In this document: positions 12,104-56,713 of the stretch, one piece after another
Position numbering within the stretch: the stretch's first letter is position 1
Layout: the number at the start of each line of letters is the position of its first letter
Source: Candidatus Saccharimonadales bacterium
Lineage (GTDB): Bacteria > Patescibacteriota > Saccharimonadia > Saccharimonadales > UBA4665
Assembly: GCA_035545555.1 (NCBI GenBank)
Contig: DASZYD010000013.1
Span: 5,725-69,724, forward strand
Direction of reading: 5' to 3'
DNA length: 64,000 nt
Program-made: the position numbers and the translations under genes
Notes under the pieces: model-generated
The model's database searches: none
Told to the model about the DNA's origin: nothing
What the model saw: the letters and a program-made list of their open reading frames with translations, nothing else

Positions 12104-13366
12104 CTACAGCAACGTACGGGGCAAAGCGTCGGTAAGGATAGTGTTCCCCTCAGGCGTAATCACGACGTCGTCCTCGATACGCACGCCGATAGCTTCCTCA
12201 GGGATATAAATCCCCGGCTCTACGGTCAGCACCATACCCGGCTCCAGCGATTGGGCATAGTCGCCGGCGTCGTGTGCGTTCAAACCCAGAAAGTGTGATG
12301 TGGCATGCGGGAAGTAGCGCCGCACCGCCTCATGCTCAATGGTCTTAATCAGTCCCAACTCGCGCAGCTTTTCACCGGTAAATTGTTCAACCTGCTGCTC
12401 GTACTCACGCAGGCCTGCGCCAGGCTTGAGGAGTGAGAACGCATACGCCTGGACATCCTGCACGGCTGCATGCACCTGCTGCGCCCGCCGCGATACATCC
12501 TTGCCCAGCGCACAGGTACGCGTGATGTCGGCCACATAGTGTTCGGCTTCGGCGCCTACATCCAGTACTACCAGTTCATCACTAGCCAGCCGGCCCTCAT
12601 TGGCGACATTATGGAGCGTACAGGCGCGCTTGCCGCTGGCGACAATCGGCGTAAAGCCATGCCCGCGGGCGCCGCGCCGCCGAAAGCCACGGGTGATATC
12701 CGCCTCGATTTCGTATTCATAGGTATATTTGGCGAGGCGCGCCGGACGGGTTACCTCTTTGAGGGTTGCCGTAGTGATACGAATGGCTTGCTGCAGAGCC
12801 GCCAGCTCAACCGGCTGCTTGACCATGCGCAGGCGGGCCAGATGCTCGCGCAGATCGAGTAGTTCCAGTGCGCCGTTCGCTTCTTTCATGCGGCGGATAA
12901 GCACTGCCCGCGCCGGATTCGTGTAGAGCCCAAAGGGCTCGACATACGCCGGGCCGGCCGCAAACGTGGCAGCATGCTTGGCCTTCTTCAGCCGGCGTTC
13001 CAGCTGGTGCCATCCTTCCGTTTCGTCCACGATGTCGCCGATGCCGGAACAGCGCGCCAGCGCCGCCCGATCGACGGCTCCGTCAAACACTTCGCGCGTA
13101 TCGCTGCGCCCGGGCACTATCAGGTATTCTTTGCCCTTATCCAGTACTAATACGATGTCCGGCTCGTCAATGCCGGTCAGATACCAGAAGTTGGCATCCT
13201 GCTGGAACGGGAAGGCCTCATCTGCTGCGCGCTGCAGCAGCCCGTTGGCGGTGATAATAATCGGCGCGGTGCCGGTAAACAGTTCGCGCAAGCGCGCCCG
13301 GTTGCCCGCGAAGAAGTCGCTCCCAAACATGACATCATCTAGCTTAGCATGCTTGGCAAATCGCAC
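12104..13366 (-). CDS. Xaa-Pro aminopeptidase (M24B metallopeptidase)
   Basis: Metal-ligand motifs are present: VLDVGAEAEHYVADITRT, HATSHFLGLNAHD, VEPGIYIPE and GVRIEDDV. There is an N-terminal creatinase-like domain. Confidence 0.88.
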   Translation of the reverse strand: MRFAKHAKLDDVMFGSDFFAGNRARLRELFTGTAPIIITANGLLQRAADEAFPFQQDANFWYLTGIDEPDIVLVLDKGKEYLIVPGRSDTREVFDGAVDRAALARCSGIGDIVDETEGWHQLERRLKKAKHAATFAAGPAYVEPFGLYTNPARAVLIRRMKEANGALELLDLREHLARLRMVKQPVELAALQQAIRITTATLKEVTRPARLAKYTYEYEIEADITRGFRRRGARGHGFTPIVASGKRACTLHNVANEGRLASDELVVLDVGAEAEHYVADITRTCALGKDVSRRAQQVHAAVQDVQAYAFSLLKPGAGLREYEQQVEQFTGEKLRELGLIKTIEHEAVRRYFPHATSHFLGLNAHDAGDYAQSLEPGMVLTVEPGIYIPEEAIGVRIEDDVVITPEGNTILTDALPRTLL

Positions 13367-50574: not shown

Positions 50575-50904
50575 TTACACTTCCAGAAACACGGTGACGA
50601 CATTGCTGTGGACCTGCATCACGCCGCCGGAAATCTTGATGCGAATCTCGCCTTCTTTGGTCTGCAGCACCAAATCGGACGAATTGAGCAGCGTGATGAA
50701 GTTGCGATGCCGCGGCAGAATATCGAACGCGCCGGTGCCGTTCACGCCGGACACACTGACCGCCTCGGCGTCGTAGAAGACCCGGAATGGCGACCAGACT
50801 TTGACATGCAACAGATCGTCAGCTGGTTTGGCAGCCTGCTTTGCGCCGGCCGGTTCGTCAACGGCGACCAACTGGCCCGTGCTGGCGTCGGTGCGCATTG
50901 CCAC
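50575..50904 (-). CDS. F-type ATPase epsilon-like subunit (beta-sandwich domain only)
   Basis: LLHVKVWSPFRVFYDAEAVSVSGVNGTGAFDILPRHRNFITLL..SDLVLQ...GEIRIKISGGVMQVHSNVVTVFLE parallels the AtpC N-domain (L.V.IV.P...F......V..P...G..GILP.H.P......G...I.......V.GGF.EV..N.V.IL). It has no C-terminal helical hairpin. Confidence 0.7.
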   Translation of the reverse strand: MAMRTDASTGQLVAVDEPAGAKQAAKPADDLLHVKVWSPFRVFYDAEAVSVSGVNGTGAFDILPRHRNFITLLNSSDLVLQTKEGEIRIKISGGVMQVHSNVVTVFLEV

Positions 50905-50930
50905 GGCCTAGAGTCTCCTCACACTGCACA

Positions 50931-53091
<2,161 letters not shown>

Positions 53092-53119
<28 letters not shown>

Positions 53120-53245
53120 GAGACAAACCCTTGCAGGGTTTTTCTCATCGGAGCTGGCGGAGTGAATCCGCCTCCCGTCTGCGACGGGACCGCCCTTGCT
53201 CTTTTCCCAAATAACCGGCTACTGATCATTTCCGTACCTCTTGGG
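53092..53245. repeat. exact 20-bp direct repeat (53092-53111 and 53226-53245) bracketing a 114-bp hairpin-rich intergenic insert
   Basis: TCATTTCCGTACCTCTTGGG occurs twice. On the coding strand it contains GGTACGGAAATGA, which is the alpha stop at one copy and the gamma ATG region at the other. The spacer holds three stem-loops: GAGACAAACCCT/AGGGTTTTTCTC, GGCGGA/TCCGCC and TCCCGTC/GACGGGA. Confidence 0.85.
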
Positions 53246-54653
53246 TGCTGGCGGTGAGGAGTTCGTCGCGTATCTGGTCGAACTGGCTATCGTCGGTCAT
53301 CTTGGCGCCGATACCCAGGGCATTCTTTTTGAGCGTCTTGATGTCGAGCACCTGGCCGTCTTTCAGATTGAGCACGATGTCCAGCATGAGCAGCTGGCTG
53401 TTGACCGAGTAGACTTCATCAGGTGCCTGGTTGAAGAGTTCGATGATGCGCTTGCCGCGCTGCAGGTCCTTTTGCGCTTCCAATGCCAGCTCGGAGCCGA
53501 AATGCGAGAACTCCTGCGCTTGCGCGTAGGCGTTAAGCGTCGAGATCGTCTGCGCCGCCAGCTGTTTCTGGCGCCTGTTTTGGCCCAAGCCGCCGACGCG
53601 CGTGACGCTGAGGCCCGTGCTGACCGCCGGCCGCATCGATTCACGGAACGTCTTCATATCCAAAATCCACTGCCCGTCGGTGATGGACATGATATTGGTC
53701 GGCAGATATCCGGTGATATCACCATCCGATGCCAGCACAATAGGCAGCGCCGTGAGCGTTTTGTGATTCGCCTTGAGCTTGCCGGCCCGTTCAAGCAGGC
53801 TGGAGTGTGCATAGAACATGTCGCCCGGGTACGAATCCCGGCCCGGCGCGCTGCCCGTGAGGAGCGCGATCTCTCGGTAGGTGTAGGCGTGACTGGTGAG
53901 GTCGTCGTAAATGATCATCACATCTTGGTCACACTTCTGCCAGAGATATTCGCCCATGGCGCAGGCCACGTACGGCGCCAGATAGCTTGTCACCAGCGAC
54001 TCAAACGTCGTCGAGACAATGACGATGGCATGCTTCATGGCATCGTTGGCAGCCAGCTTGCTGAGCAGCAGGTCAACATCGCTGCGCCGCTTGGAAATAA
54101 GCACATAGATGGCGACCACATCAGAGTCTTTTTGGTTGAGCGCCAGCTGGTAGGCCAAGGTGCTCTTGCCGGACTTGCTGTCGCCCAGCACGGCCAGGCG
54201 CTGGCCGCGCACCAGCGGGAAGAGCTCATCCAATACCATCAGGCCGGTCACCAGTTGCCTGTCCAGCGCCTCGCGCTCCTGCAGGCCCGGCGCGGCGTTA
54301 AAGACCGGCCACGTCGTATCGGCCGCAATCGGCCCCTTGCCGTCAAGCGGCTCGCCGGTTACCGAAATGACCCGGCCGATAAAATCTTTGCCTACTTTGC
54401 TGACCAGTTCGTGGTGCTGTACCACCGCCATCATGCCGGCGTGCAGGACGTTCACGCCCAGGTGGAGCACCACCACCCGGTCCTCCAGAATGTGGCGGAC
54501 AAAGCCTTTGCTGCCGTCCTCAAACATGACCAGTGCATTGACGTTCACCGGCTGCAAGCCGCGTACCTGCACCATAAATTTATCGACGGTAATCACTTCG
54601 CCGACGGGGCGGCTGCTTTCTACCAGATGGTCGAAGTGCGGATTGTCACTCAT
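53226..54653 (-). CDS. F1 ATPase alpha-like subunit (divergent, 475 aa)
   Basis: Carries P-loop GDSKSGKST (canonical GDRQTGKT), [17 protein letters not shown] (YDDLSKQAVAYR), [39 protein letters not shown] and [16 protein letters not shown] (Arg-finger context). Confidence 0.85.
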
Positions 54654-55209
54654 GCATGGCCTCCGCCGACACCGTAGCCATGGGTGCGGCTGCTGCAGCG
54701 GGGGCGTCGGCCGCGGCAGCTACCAGGCTATCGACCAACAGCTGCCGGTGGTCCTGCAAGTAGCGCCGCAGCGACAGATCAAAGTACTGGTTAGTGGTCT
54801 GTACCGTGCAGCCGGCCGCAATGCTGGGCTGCAAACCGACACGGATCAATACCGCCGGATGGATAGTTTGGCGGAACCACTGCACGATCTTCTGCAAAAA
54901 GGCCGATGATGGGTCAACCGCAAAACTCATATGTACCACCGGCGCCTGCGCGGTCGTATCTTGCAAAAAAGCTGCCAGCCGGGCGCGCGCAGCCGCGTCA
55001 AGAAGGTTCAGCCCGTTCGCCGCCGCCAGCTCATCGAGCATACGGCTGACTTTGGGCAGCTGCGCCTGCGTGGTGCCTGGGGTCCGCAGCGCCTGCTGGT
55101 GCAAGTAGTCGCTCAGTGCTGCCACCTCGCGCTTGAGGCGCGATACATCAGCCGGGGAGGTCACCAGCAACGGTAGCGTCAGAGTGCCGGGGATGGTCGT
55201 ATGTTCCAT
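54646..55209 (-). CDS. F-type ATPase delta/OSCP-like subunit (only the C-terminal domain recognisable)
   Basis: [22 protein letters not shown]...[32 protein letters not shown] parallels the AtpH C-domain (...VDPSLIGG..V..GD.V.D.S....L). It sits between the b-like and alpha-like genes, overlapping the alpha start. Confidence 0.6.
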
Positions 55210-55212
55210 AGC

Positions 55213-55839
55213 CTACGCTCCGCGGCTGATATCTTCCAATATCGCACGTTTATTCGTCTCAAGTTCGCCAAGAATGTACTCCAGCTGATCGCCCAGATTG
55301 ATCTGGTTGCCGATGGCCGTCATGAGATAATGGTTGACGATTGTCGCGGTGTTGTCGGTAAAGCGCTGGATGATCTGCGCCTTCTCGGCTGCAATCTGCT
55401 CCTGCACCTGTTTGCTCAGCTGGGCGCGCTGTTCGTCGATGGCCTGGTTCGTCTTCTGGATGGAGTCGATGGCGAGCTGCTTGGCGTCCATGATCGACTG
55501 CTCATACTTGGCAAACTCTTCCTGCAGCTTCTTGGTGATCTCCGCCTTCATGTACTCGTTCAGCTGGCTGGTCGTCAGGCGCAGGTCCTGCTGCAGAAAC
55601 ATCGCGTTCTCACCGATGATCTTCTCGAAGTGCAGGCGGCCGCGGTTGCGCAGCTCTTCGCGGAACTCGGCATTGAAGATGTGTTCGACGTCTTCCTCGG
55701 CTGCTTTGCTATAGTCGGCAACGGCTTTCTTGGCCGGGCGGACGCCGGCGGCGCTTCCCAGACGCACCGCCACCCAGACGAACGCCAGCCCTGCGGCCCC
55801 CAAGATGCCGAGCATTCCGCCGAGCCACCAAATCGTCAT
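55213..55839 (-). CDS. F-type ATPase b-like peripheral stalk subunit
   Basis: One N-terminal TM helix (WWLGGMLGILGAAGLAFVWVAV), then ~170 aa of heptad-like charged helix. Called from position and architecture, not sequence identity. Confidence 0.6.
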   Translation of the reverse strand: MTIWWLGGMLGILGAAGLAFVWVAVRLGSAAGVRPAKKAVADYSKAAEEDVEHIFNAEFREELRNRGRLHFEKIIGENAMFLQQDLRLTTSQLNEYMKAEITKKLQEEFAKYEQSIMDAKQLAIDSIQKTNQAIDEQRAQLSKQVQEQIAAEKAQIIQRFTDNTATIVNHYLMTAIGNQINLGDQLEYILGELETNKRAILEDISRGA

Positions 55840-55867
55840 GTCTTTATACCCACCGCCCTGCTTACGC

Positions 55868-56713
55868 TTATAACCTTAGTAACAAATATACCGCAAACAG
55901 ACCAATGATTAAAATGGTCACACTGGTAAGGATGATCTGGACCAGCCCGCGCACGATTGACTGCTTGGCAAGCGGGTTACGGCCGATCGAGATAATACTG
56001 CCGCGCACCCCGCTGTACAGCACACCGCCGGCGATGAGCGCGGTAATGGCCAGCACCGCCAGGCTCAGCCAAACGCGCGGTGCGCTAACCGGTTTAGCGG
56101 CGATGGAGTTGCCCGCCACCTGCAGAAAGCCGGGCAGATTGCCGGTGCCATGGCCCAGGTTCGGGTTGCCCGCCACGTTCAGATCGACCGGAATACTGCC
56201 GATGGCTACCGTCTGTTTGCCGCTGCCCGTTTGCAGCGTCGCCGTGCTCACGGTATTGCCGGCGCCGGTAAACGCAACCGCGGCTTTGCCCAGCACGATG
56301 ATCTGGCTGTTGTCGGCTTTCATGCCGACACCATTGAGCGCGGAAATGGTAATGTAATCGCCAACGCTGATAGCCCCGTTCTGGTTGCTCACCAGCACGC
56401 TGTAGCGGCCGGAGGTAGCTACATAGACCTGAGCCGTATCACCGTTGCCTGTCAGCGATAGTGGCGCGTCACTGGCCGGGATGGACACGCCGAGCATTGC
56501 GGTGTCACGGTCGTTCGTCAGCGGTATGACCTTGGTCGTATCGTGCGGATCGAGCCCTACGATCATCCCCTGCCGAATCGCCGTCCCCGCATCATAGGCC
56601 GTCACGACCGGTGACCCGCTGGTCGTCGCACTGGCAGCCACAGCCACACCGGCCGCCCCCACCGGTAAAAGGAGTACGGCAAACGCGAGTACGATACGGC
56701 GAAGCGTAAACAT
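55868..56713 (-). CDS. secreted ~200-aa beta-rich domain fused to a c-subunit-like TM hairpin (occupies the atpE slot)
   Basis: The signal peptide (LLLPVGAAGVAVAAS) is followed by a soluble domain and a C-terminal hairpin, WLSLAVLAITALIAGGVLYSGVRGSIISIGRNPLAKQSIVRGLVQIILTSVTILIIGLFAVYLLLRL. The hairpin has a GRNP loop (canonical c subunits: A-R-Q/N-P) and 34 residues from the loop Pro to the C-terminus, the same as in Bacillus-type c subunits. Neither helix contains Asp or Glu. Confidence 0.6.
   Translation of the reverse strand: MFTLRRIVLAFAVLLLPVGAAGVAVAASATTSGSPVVTAYDAGTAIRQGMIVGLDPHDTTKVIPLTNDRDTAMLGVSIPASDAPLSLTGNGDTAQVYVATSGRYSVLVSNQNGAISVGDYITISALNGVGMKADNSQIIVLGKAAVAFTGAGNTVSTATLQTGSGKQTVAIGSIPVDLNVAGNPNLGHGTGNLPGFLQVAGNSIAAKPVSAPRVWLSLAVLAITALIAGGVLYSGVRGSIISIGRNPLAKQSIVRGLVQIILTSVTILIIGLFAVYLLLRL

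Follow-up and report, generated by a model that had tools for sequence, protein, structure and literature searches.

A structured repeat, probably a non-autonomous mobile element, at the atpA-atpG stop/start overlap of a Saccharibacteria genome

In the 64-kb stretch of DNA analysed here (the window), an ATPase operon extends over positions 50575-56713. It encodes short alpha (475 aa) and beta (437 aa) subunits, delta is represented by a weak below-cutoff OSCP match, and two ORFs of 208 and 281 aa upstream have no credible Pfam match. The atpA-like and atpG-like genes are separated by an insert that lies between two copies of a 20-nt sequence (Table 1). An earlier note on this DNA, made from the sequence alone, had described the duplication as exact, with the upstream copy encoding the alpha C-terminus (...QEVRK-stop) and the downstream copy supplying the start of gamma (MKRLLDL); both points were confirmed, the downstream copy comprising a Shine-Dalgarno sequence together with the gamma ATG. 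The 20-mer (TCATTTCCGTACCTCTTGGG in plus-strand form, CCCAAGAGGTACGGAAATGA on the minus strand) has exactly two occurrences at a spacing of 134 nt. With up to three mismatches tolerated, there were two matches in the whole window, and none of 100 dinucleotide shuffles gave two or more. Along the minus strand of 52900-53450, the order of segments is ACC CAA GAG GTA CGG AAA TGA, TCAGTAGCCGGTTATTT, GGGAAAAGAGCA...GGGTTTGTCTCAT, GGCCCG, CCCAAGAGGTACGGAAATGA, and AACGGCTGCTT. The alternative in-frame ATG at 53119 that had been pointed out is also present; it has no Shine-Dalgarno sequence, and in relatives the gamma start is at the MKR/MRR position.

Table 1. Features of the atpA-atpG junction in the window and further copies of the element in the same genome.
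Feature	Position	Strand or orientation	Remarks
atpA-like gene	53226-54653	-	475 aa; ATP-synt_ab, ATP-synt_ab_C
Upstream 20-nt copy	53226-53245	-	final atpA codons and stop (QEVRK-stop); AAGAGG Shine-Dalgarno; ATG (53229-53227) opening the bridging ORF
Filler, 17 nt (TCAGTAGCCGGTTATTT)	53209-53225	-	between upstream repeat and element; about half not common to other copies
Bridging ORF, 45 codons	53092-53229	-	start overlaps atpA stop (ATGA); stop overlaps atpG start (ATGA)
Core element, long form, 91 nt (GGGAAAAGAGCAA to GGGTTTGTCTCAT)	53118-53208	-	model R1 match G000:C13:58842-58932, 40.6 bits; alignments
Single-stranded 5' motif (GGGAAAAGAGCA)	53197-53208	-	invariant or near-invariant columns in alignments A1 and A3
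P1 closing stem	53150-53196	-	53192-53196 paired with 53150-53154; encloses P1a and P1b (three-way junction)
Hairpin P1a	53174-53188	-	within P1
Hairpin P1b	53156-53172	-	within P1
Near-invariant hairpin P2 (ATGAGAAAAACCC-TGCA-AGGGTTTGTCTCAT)	53118-53148	-	contains, in its 3' strand, the ATG at 53119
Linker GGCCCG, 6 nt	53112-53117	-	element to downstream repeat
Downstream 20-nt copy	53092-53111	-	AAGAGG Shine-Dalgarno; atpG ATG (53095-53093); TGA (53094-53092) closing the bridging ORF
atpG-like gene	52241-53095	-	284 aa from MKRLLDL; Pfam ATP-synt; longest ORF 52241-53119
Beta-type protein ORF	50931-52244		from the list of flanking ORFs
Own-genome copy	C37:12045-12148	sense	83-85% identity; between mraZ and rsmH
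Own-genome copy	C26:2755-2850	antisense	77% identity; between ABC-2 permease gene and PHP-domain gene
Own-genome copy, shorter	C32:17128-17202		between two tRNA-Ser genes

The alpha/gamma junctions of 26 related genomes, read after locating the gamma gene, reveal the empty site. A 4-nt ATGA stop/start overlap, preceded by a GGAG-type Shine-Dalgarno sequence about 8-10 nt upstream, was found in 23 junctions, among them those of all four same-genus genomes with the gene (G002-G005), which have no insert. The remaining three comprise a TAATG overlap, a longer overlap, and a spacer of 273 nt in G042. The upstream 20-nt copy represents the original 3' end of atpA, collinear with ...GGAGATGAAGAAATGA of the relatives. 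The comparison of orthologous junctions that the earlier note had proposed thus bears out its claim of an ancestral ATGA overlap, and the spacer is not an ancient one. Because relatives keep the overlap and the sole other spacer is that of G042, the 134-nt addition is derived and lineage-specific. Judged from these junctions, the insertion is placed after the split of this lineage from the sampled species of its genus.

The three stem-loops reported earlier in the insert are real and supported by covariation (P1a, P1b, and P2), with P1 closing the first two. The minimum-free-energy RNA fold has -70.7 kcal/mol (z = -2.7), and in this fold pairing between the filler and atpG encloses the element. 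The filler is complementary to the first atpG codons (duplex of -17.0 kcal/mol, compared with -9.6 +/- 2.8 in shuffles; p ~0.007). We considered the filler as a targeting guide and rejected this idea, given that the complementarity is significant in the window copy alone and not in 21 other flanked copies; in the window, it may have arisen by chance or been left behind by the insertion.

The insert had also been described as having no ORF. This was wrong, as a 45-codon ORF begins at the ATG within the first ATGA and is closed by the TGA within the second. Since insert and repeat together measure 134 nt, the duplicated ATG opens a 45-codon frame through the element, and the second repeat copy falls in the atpA frame, so that the bridging ORF has a C-terminus identical to the end of atpA. 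This arrangement is shared by all 13 copies found at junctions with a Shine-Dalgarno sequence and ATG (window, L021, L022, L027, L028, L034, L067, L068, L077, L089, L104, L105, and L111). In each, the upstream stop is overlapped or abutted by an ATG from which a frame of 33-45 codons extends across the whole element, and the stop codon lies on, or at most 3 nt from, the downstream start codon (TAATG, ATGA, or TAGTG). As a given frame is open across the element in 54.5% of the other copies, 13 of 13 is unlikely to have arisen by chance (at most ~4e-4, or ~8e-3 when about eight distinct junctions are counted). Furthermore, the spacing between the 5' motif and P2 is 1 mod 3 in 10 of 12 short-form junction copies, compared with 15 of 56 elsewhere, and this spacing class avoids the in-frame TGA of CGATGAG, keeping the frame open. 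In L105, the flanking duplication has decayed and the bridging ORF is kept. The bridging ORFs are not one conserved protein, because the frame used through the element differs between copies. An automatic definition of "intercistronic" copies, which picked wrong starts and was affected by short loci and short ribosomal-protein genes, was kept out of these statistics.

The duplication preserves both genes, with the C-terminus and stop of atpA in the upstream copy and the ribosome-binding site and start of atpG in the downstream copy. We infer that the bridging ORF is translated. Ribosomes ending atpA would restart on the duplicated ATG, melt the folded element while in the bridging frame, and then terminate on the atpG start; reinitiation at the atpG ATG would relay translational coupling, and the insertion would be tolerated. 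Selection alone can account for the extent of the duplication, exactly from the Shine-Dalgarno sequence to ATGA, since a duplication of about 20 nt leaves both genes intact only there. The bridging ORF thus looks like a way of keeping translational coupling rather than of altering it. The proposal that the insert tunes the alpha:gamma stoichiometry is not supported, as close relatives lack the insert, the bridging ORF seems to preserve coupling, and no terminator-like site was found on the minus strand of 52600-53700, where P2 is followed by GGCCCGCCC with no match to an intrinsic terminator or attenuator. The insert has no promoter-like site on the coding strand either. It may have a modest effect on atpG translation or mRNA stability.

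The element belongs to a multi-copy family. A BLAST search of the insert, which the earlier note had put forward as a test for a multi-copy element, identified three further copies in the same genome (0.78 Mb in 42 contigs; Table 1) and matches in 19 of 61 related genomes; no donor copy more than 85% identical was found in this 87.6%-complete assembly. Members of the family share a plan in which the 5' motif GGGAAAAGAGCAG is followed by the P1 stem over one variable hairpin (short form, ~72-76 nt) or two (long form, ~85-93 nt, as in the window), then (GC)GCG, and then the almost invariant 12-bp hairpin P2, ATGAGAAAAACC-GNA-GGTTTGTCTCAT. The GC content of copies ranges from 0.41 to 0.61. An extra 3' tail, AGGCGAAGCCGTAA(T), which contains the mini-hairpin sequence GCGAAGC, follows P2 in a subset of copies (L066, L068, L071-L073, L090, and others) and is absent from the window copy. 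No terminal inverted repeats are present: neither form of the 3' end (GGTTTGTCTCAT alone or extended by AGGCGAAGCCGTAA) matches the 5' end (GGGAAAAGAGCAG) in inverted orientation, and the inverted repeats of the insert are limited to its internal hairpins. The reverse complement of the family 5' motif (CTGCTCTTTTCCC) starts like boxA, and in the genome of the window a perfect boxA-like GCTCTTTAACAA separates mraZ from the element copy upstream of which it lies (C37, ~12180-12200; L002). The resemblance of this reverse complement (CTGCTCTTT) to boxA was dropped, because tRNA and rRNA genes are on the opposite strand.

A covariance model of the short form (R1) was used to search 151 evenly sampled genomes of the order, mostly MAGs, in which related genomes are non-independent samples. 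Matches were found in 99 of these, with 1-25 per genome and ~620 in all. Among ~145 genomes of other Patescibacteria, there were three weak matches. A scan of GTDB species genomes for the exact P2 pattern returned at least 120 stretches, nearly all from records titled Candidatus Saccharibacteria, Saccharimonadales, or Saccharimonadia, including one TM7 oral-taxon single-cell genome. Carriage by phages or viruses was considered and set aside, with no family match in IMG/VR contigs or phage records. Searches of Rfam 15 gave best E-values of 1.4 for the window copy and 4.9 for a consensus-like copy, and no gathering-level match on the element in 26 loci. Our literature search found no description of the family in Saccharibacteria or Patescibacteria. 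Going by the records searched, the family is specific to Saccharibacteria, essentially absent elsewhere, and apparently undescribed until now.

The structure of the element is under selection. Among 83 distinct copies aligned on R1, 98.8% of pair cells are standard and compensatory changes affect 16 of 20 pairs; none of 500 shuffles reached these values, and sliding the partners lowers pairing to 32-53%. A caveat for these figures is the fitting of the alignment to the model itself. For the long form, a structure-blind MAFFT alignment of 13 copies was scored against a hand-written three-way junction (P1, P1a, P1b, and P2): pairing extends to 94% of cells, compensatory changes are seen in 18 of 28 pairs, and none of 500 shuffles did as well. 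Counts of G-U and A-C mismatches (16:11 and 9:9), meant to tell which strand folds and in which form, give no strand asymmetry, and the fold may matter either as RNA or as single-stranded DNA.

Direct repeats of host sequence are a trait of the family. A flanking duplication was called when it lay above the 99th percentile of controls with mismatched flanks. By this standard, 17 of 52 copies in a first sample were flanked by repeats of 13-54 nt, with 1-38 nt of filler on the 5' side and a gap of 6-16 nt on the 3' side. In an independent sample obtained by the exact P2 pattern, 19 of 106 copies were flagged, three of which were artefacts of tRNA-tRNA similarity. The 16 that were left have duplications of 15-78 nt, including exact ones of 50/50, 48/48, 44/44, 26/26, and 24/24. 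Overall, ~15-30% of copies have flanking duplications of 13-78 nt. The 20/20 repeat, 17-18-nt filler, and 6-nt right gap in the window are thus typical of the family. The earlier note had proposed two sources for the insert. The first, a small non-autonomous element that left a long target-site duplication as its footprint, is supported by the copies in the same genome, by the spread over the order, and by the duplications in both samples, whereas the second, if taken as pure replication slippage, does not account for a multi-copy family.

We read the insertion as recent and the inserted unit as a non-autonomous mobile element. In full, we propose, with a probability of roughly 0.7, that a structured non-autonomous repeat specific to Saccharibacteria inserted in the atpA-atpG ATGA overlap and duplicated 20 nt, that coupling is relayed across it, and that at this site the element has, at most, a mild modulatory effect and is most likely a selfish one. 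The 5' filler and the differing lengths of the duplications would point to independently placed staggered nicks or to template switching rather than to the cut of a classical transposase.

Against this reading stand the lack of a donor copy above 85% identity in the assembly and the outcome of the search for a mobilizing enzyme, in which none was identified. Y1_Tnp-like ORFs were found in 45 of the 151 genomes of the order and are not associated with the element, which occurs in 33 of the 45 genomes with Y1_Tnp and in 66 of the 106 without; G084 (25 copies), G054 (19), and G073 (17) have no Y1_Tnp match. DDE_Tnp_1 was found in none of the genomes searched and rve in G000 (the genome of the window) only. 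These three domains were rejected as mobilizing partners, Y1_Tnp for lack of association and the others as essentially absent. A route by reverse transcription was likewise rejected, as no reverse transcriptase domain (PF00078) was found in any of six genomes (G000 and five high-copy genomes; four are 97-100% complete). Apart from this, many genomes of the order contain multi-copy ORFs of ~205-240 aa that match only the C-terminal two-thirds of the Pfam Y1_Tnp profile (~38-120), e.g., G048 (six), G063 (nine), G081 (nine), and G182 (six). They occur beside a few canonical IS200-like genes (~145 aa) and are unassociated with the repeat family.

The positions of the copies are far from uniform. 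About one third sit 3-15 nt 5' of tRNA, 5S, or 16S genes. In the 106-copy sample, a sense tRNA gene begins 3-15 nt downstream of 37 copies and an antisense one of a single copy, and other copies precede 5S by 3-13 nt or 16S by 13 nt, fall in the 5' portion of 23S, or come after the L10 leader. The targets also include the 3' ends of coding sequences and the starts of genes. Of the copies between two ORFs of the same strand, 21 are in sense and 7 in antisense orientation. Several junctions are occupied in more than one genome, e.g., rpmC-rpsQ, rplW-rplB, rplE-rpsN, a CCEG...-coaD junction, and the 5' end of a tpiA-like gene (antisense), with gene names read by eye from N-terminal sequences. At these recurrent junctions, the paired flank copies are near-identical within a genome and different between genomes, a pattern that would be equally expected from old insertions with concerted evolution or from repeated new insertions. 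The atpA-atpG spacer of G042, which belongs to a different family of the order, holds a divergent member of the repeat family (45 bits). In this 273-nt spacer (L049, G042:C3, 1219-1491), the element forms the last 68 nt (1412-1479), directly before the atpG Shine-Dalgarno sequence; its inner P2 helix is replaced by GGGGG/CCCCC, and the first ~190 nt of the spacer are AT-rich.

Some individual loci have features of their own. The copy in L020 (G006:C1, 1501-1573, minus strand) lies within the 23S rRNA gene, ~320 nt from the 5' end, and is flanked by the complementary ctggtat and ataccag, resembling an intervening sequence. In L017 (G029:C3, ~1532-1740), a tRNA-Ser-like start (GGAGAGGTACCCAAGTGGCTG) directly follows the copy, with the called tRNA-Ser ~115 nt further on; this may reflect duplication of the 5' half of the tRNA or interruption of the gene. 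A conserved GGAAUCCCGUG..AAUCGGGAACUGUGCCGCAACGGUAAG adjoins copies in L012 (1-60), L013 (~1400-1478), and L107 (reverse strand). By its look it is part of a structured RNA and by eye it recalls the core of a cobalamin riboswitch, and in L013 and L107 it has no Rfam match at the gathering level.

These positions, together with the mobility results, suggest a further reading that we regard as tentative and rather doubtful, in which the family represents a new class of mobile elements: a structured unit of ~72-90 nt that lacks inverted ends, neither encodes nor is linked to a transposase or reverse transcriptase, homes to the 5' boundaries of highly expressed genes (tRNA, rRNA, and the start codons of ribosomal-protein, atp, and glycolytic genes), and produces long, variable target duplications. 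RNase P RNA is present, so tRNA-linked copies would be freed from the tRNA as leader RNAs. If the new class is real, such RNase P-released copies could be master copies, and the insertion mechanism would be an undescribed one in which a conserved host factor recognizes the invariant hairpin.

The conservation over the whole order and the placement 3-15 nt before tRNA and rRNA genes are also a hint of a host function. The element might be a functional RNA module, e.g., a processing, stability, or protein-binding signal that normally serves 5' of tRNA, rRNA, and ribosomal-protein cistrons, with the atpA-atpG copy selected for mRNA processing or for the alpha:gamma ratio. This would agree with the nearly exclusive sense orientation of the adjoining tRNA genes (37 to 1), the copies at 5S, 16S, 23S, and the L10 leader, the strong sequence conservation and covarying stems, the bias to the sense strand (21 to 7), and the second family member at the same junction in G042. 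However, 24 of the 26 relatives, including the four same-genus genomes with the gene, have no element at this junction, the insert has no terminator-like site, and about a quarter of the copies between same-strand ORFs are antisense, including one in the genome of the window (C26). The flanking duplications mark insertion events rather than inherited regulatory regions, and the mismatch counts favour neither strand. We consider this explanation unlikely.

A second alternative is a one-off replication error, in which the fork changed its template to a different copy of the repeat and came back 20 nt upstream, the family as a whole spreading by such accidents alone. Duplications that vary from 13 to 78 nt with 0-27 nt of filler on the 5' side would be expected from such events, as would the window filler, which looks like the atpG start copied in inverted orientation, and a family with no associated transposase or reverse transcriptase. 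Accidents alone account poorly for an architecture that recurs dozens of times with a defined 5' motif, a 3' hairpin, and a sense bias, for right-hand gaps that are short in nearly all flanked copies, and for identical junctions hit in several genomes, and the complementarity of the filler is absent from other copies; this explanation thus seems improbable. Very little credence is due to an artefact of assembly, or to an old intergenic spacer with a chance repeat in it, even with a genome of 42 contigs and 87.6% completeness, as the insertion lies mid-way along an 85-kb contig, the same anatomy (duplication, filler, element, and bridging ORF) is found in many independent assemblies, and the empty site in relatives argues against an ancient spacer.

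A recently inserted, largely selfish repeat thus remains our preferred reading, and it has several implications. Saccharibacteria genomes are tiny and tightly packed, with many overlapping genes. Despite this streamlining, the repeat has reached most of the sampled lineages of the order. The atpA-atpG junction illustrates how a compact operon absorbs an insertion: a duplication from the Shine-Dalgarno sequence to the start codon and an open frame of the right length rebuild both stop/start overlaps, as they do again at other junctions, including those of ribosomal-protein genes. A route of mobility outside the current classes of bacterial transposons is suggested by duplications that are long and variable, by ends that are not inverted, and by the failure to identify an enzyme. 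The close association with the 5' ends of tRNA and rRNA genes, in turn, points to either a targeting rule or a role as RNA. For annotation, the family is missing from Rfam, and pipelines will call small ORFs or extend gene starts at such sites, e.g., to the ATG at 53119.

Among known systems, self-cleaving ribozymes such as the hammerhead have cleavage activity and a conserved catalytic core, e.g., CUGANGA ... GAAA. The element was compared with the hammerhead by eye and set aside as an unlikely candidate, since its CGAUGAG lacks U4 of the CUGAUGA core and there is no match to an Rfam ribozyme. SINE-like retroposons, which move by target-primed reverse transcription, have to our knowledge no bacterial precedent. 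The family resembles them in its variable duplications, untemplated or foreign 5' filler, defined 3' side, and many tRNA-linked copies that could serve as masters, but has no A-rich 3' tail, and no reverse transcriptase domain was found in the six genomes searched. The REP/BIME elements with their RAYT (Y1 HUH) partners and the IS200/IS605-derived hairpin elements share with the family a conserved imperfect hairpin as the recognizable unit. Unlike in the REP/RAYT system, however, presence of the family does not track Y1_Tnp, and several genomes with 13-25 copies have no Y1_Tnp. Transposition of IS200/IS605 produces no target duplication.

The palindromic elements of Rickettsia are inserted in-frame within proteins and add a peptide segment (PMC10969869 and references therein). 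Both they and the present family are palindromic repeats in the reduced genomes of host-dependent bacteria, and in both a frame that stays open allows the repeat to be tolerated within translated sequence. By contrast, the translated copies of the present family would be separate bridging ORFs of 33-45 codons between genes, bounded by duplicated stop/start overlaps; the frame differs between copies, and there is no sequence relationship. Prokaryotic MITEs (e.g., Correia, ERIC, and RUP) are multi-copy elements of less than 500 bp with stem-loops, and direct repeats flank their younger copies (PMC10969869). The family likewise is small, multi-copy, non-coding for its own mobility, and often co-transcribed with neighbouring genes, with stable stem-loops and direct repeats of the target; such repeats flank the copy in the window (20/20) and 17 of 52 and 16 of 106 copies elsewhere. 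It differs from MITEs in that it lacks terminal inverted repeats (~4-30 bp in MITEs), its duplications are long, ranging over 13-78 nt, where those of MITEs are short and of fixed length, and its copies are neither AT-rich nor confined to AT-rich intergenic targets, with a GC content of 0.41-0.61 and targets that include coding 3' ends and gene starts. Moreover, its sequence is conserved over a whole order rather than at the genus level, and it strongly prefers the 5' boundary of tRNA, rRNA, and protein genes. MITEs are moved in trans by a related autonomous IS with the same ends; for the family, searches for three transposase domains gave no such IS, with rve in G000 only, DDE_Tnp_1 nowhere, and Y1_Tnp unassociated. 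Prokaryotic MITEs and the Rickettsia elements are the nearest known kinds, which places the family with the small non-autonomous mobile repeats, and it may move by a new mechanism.
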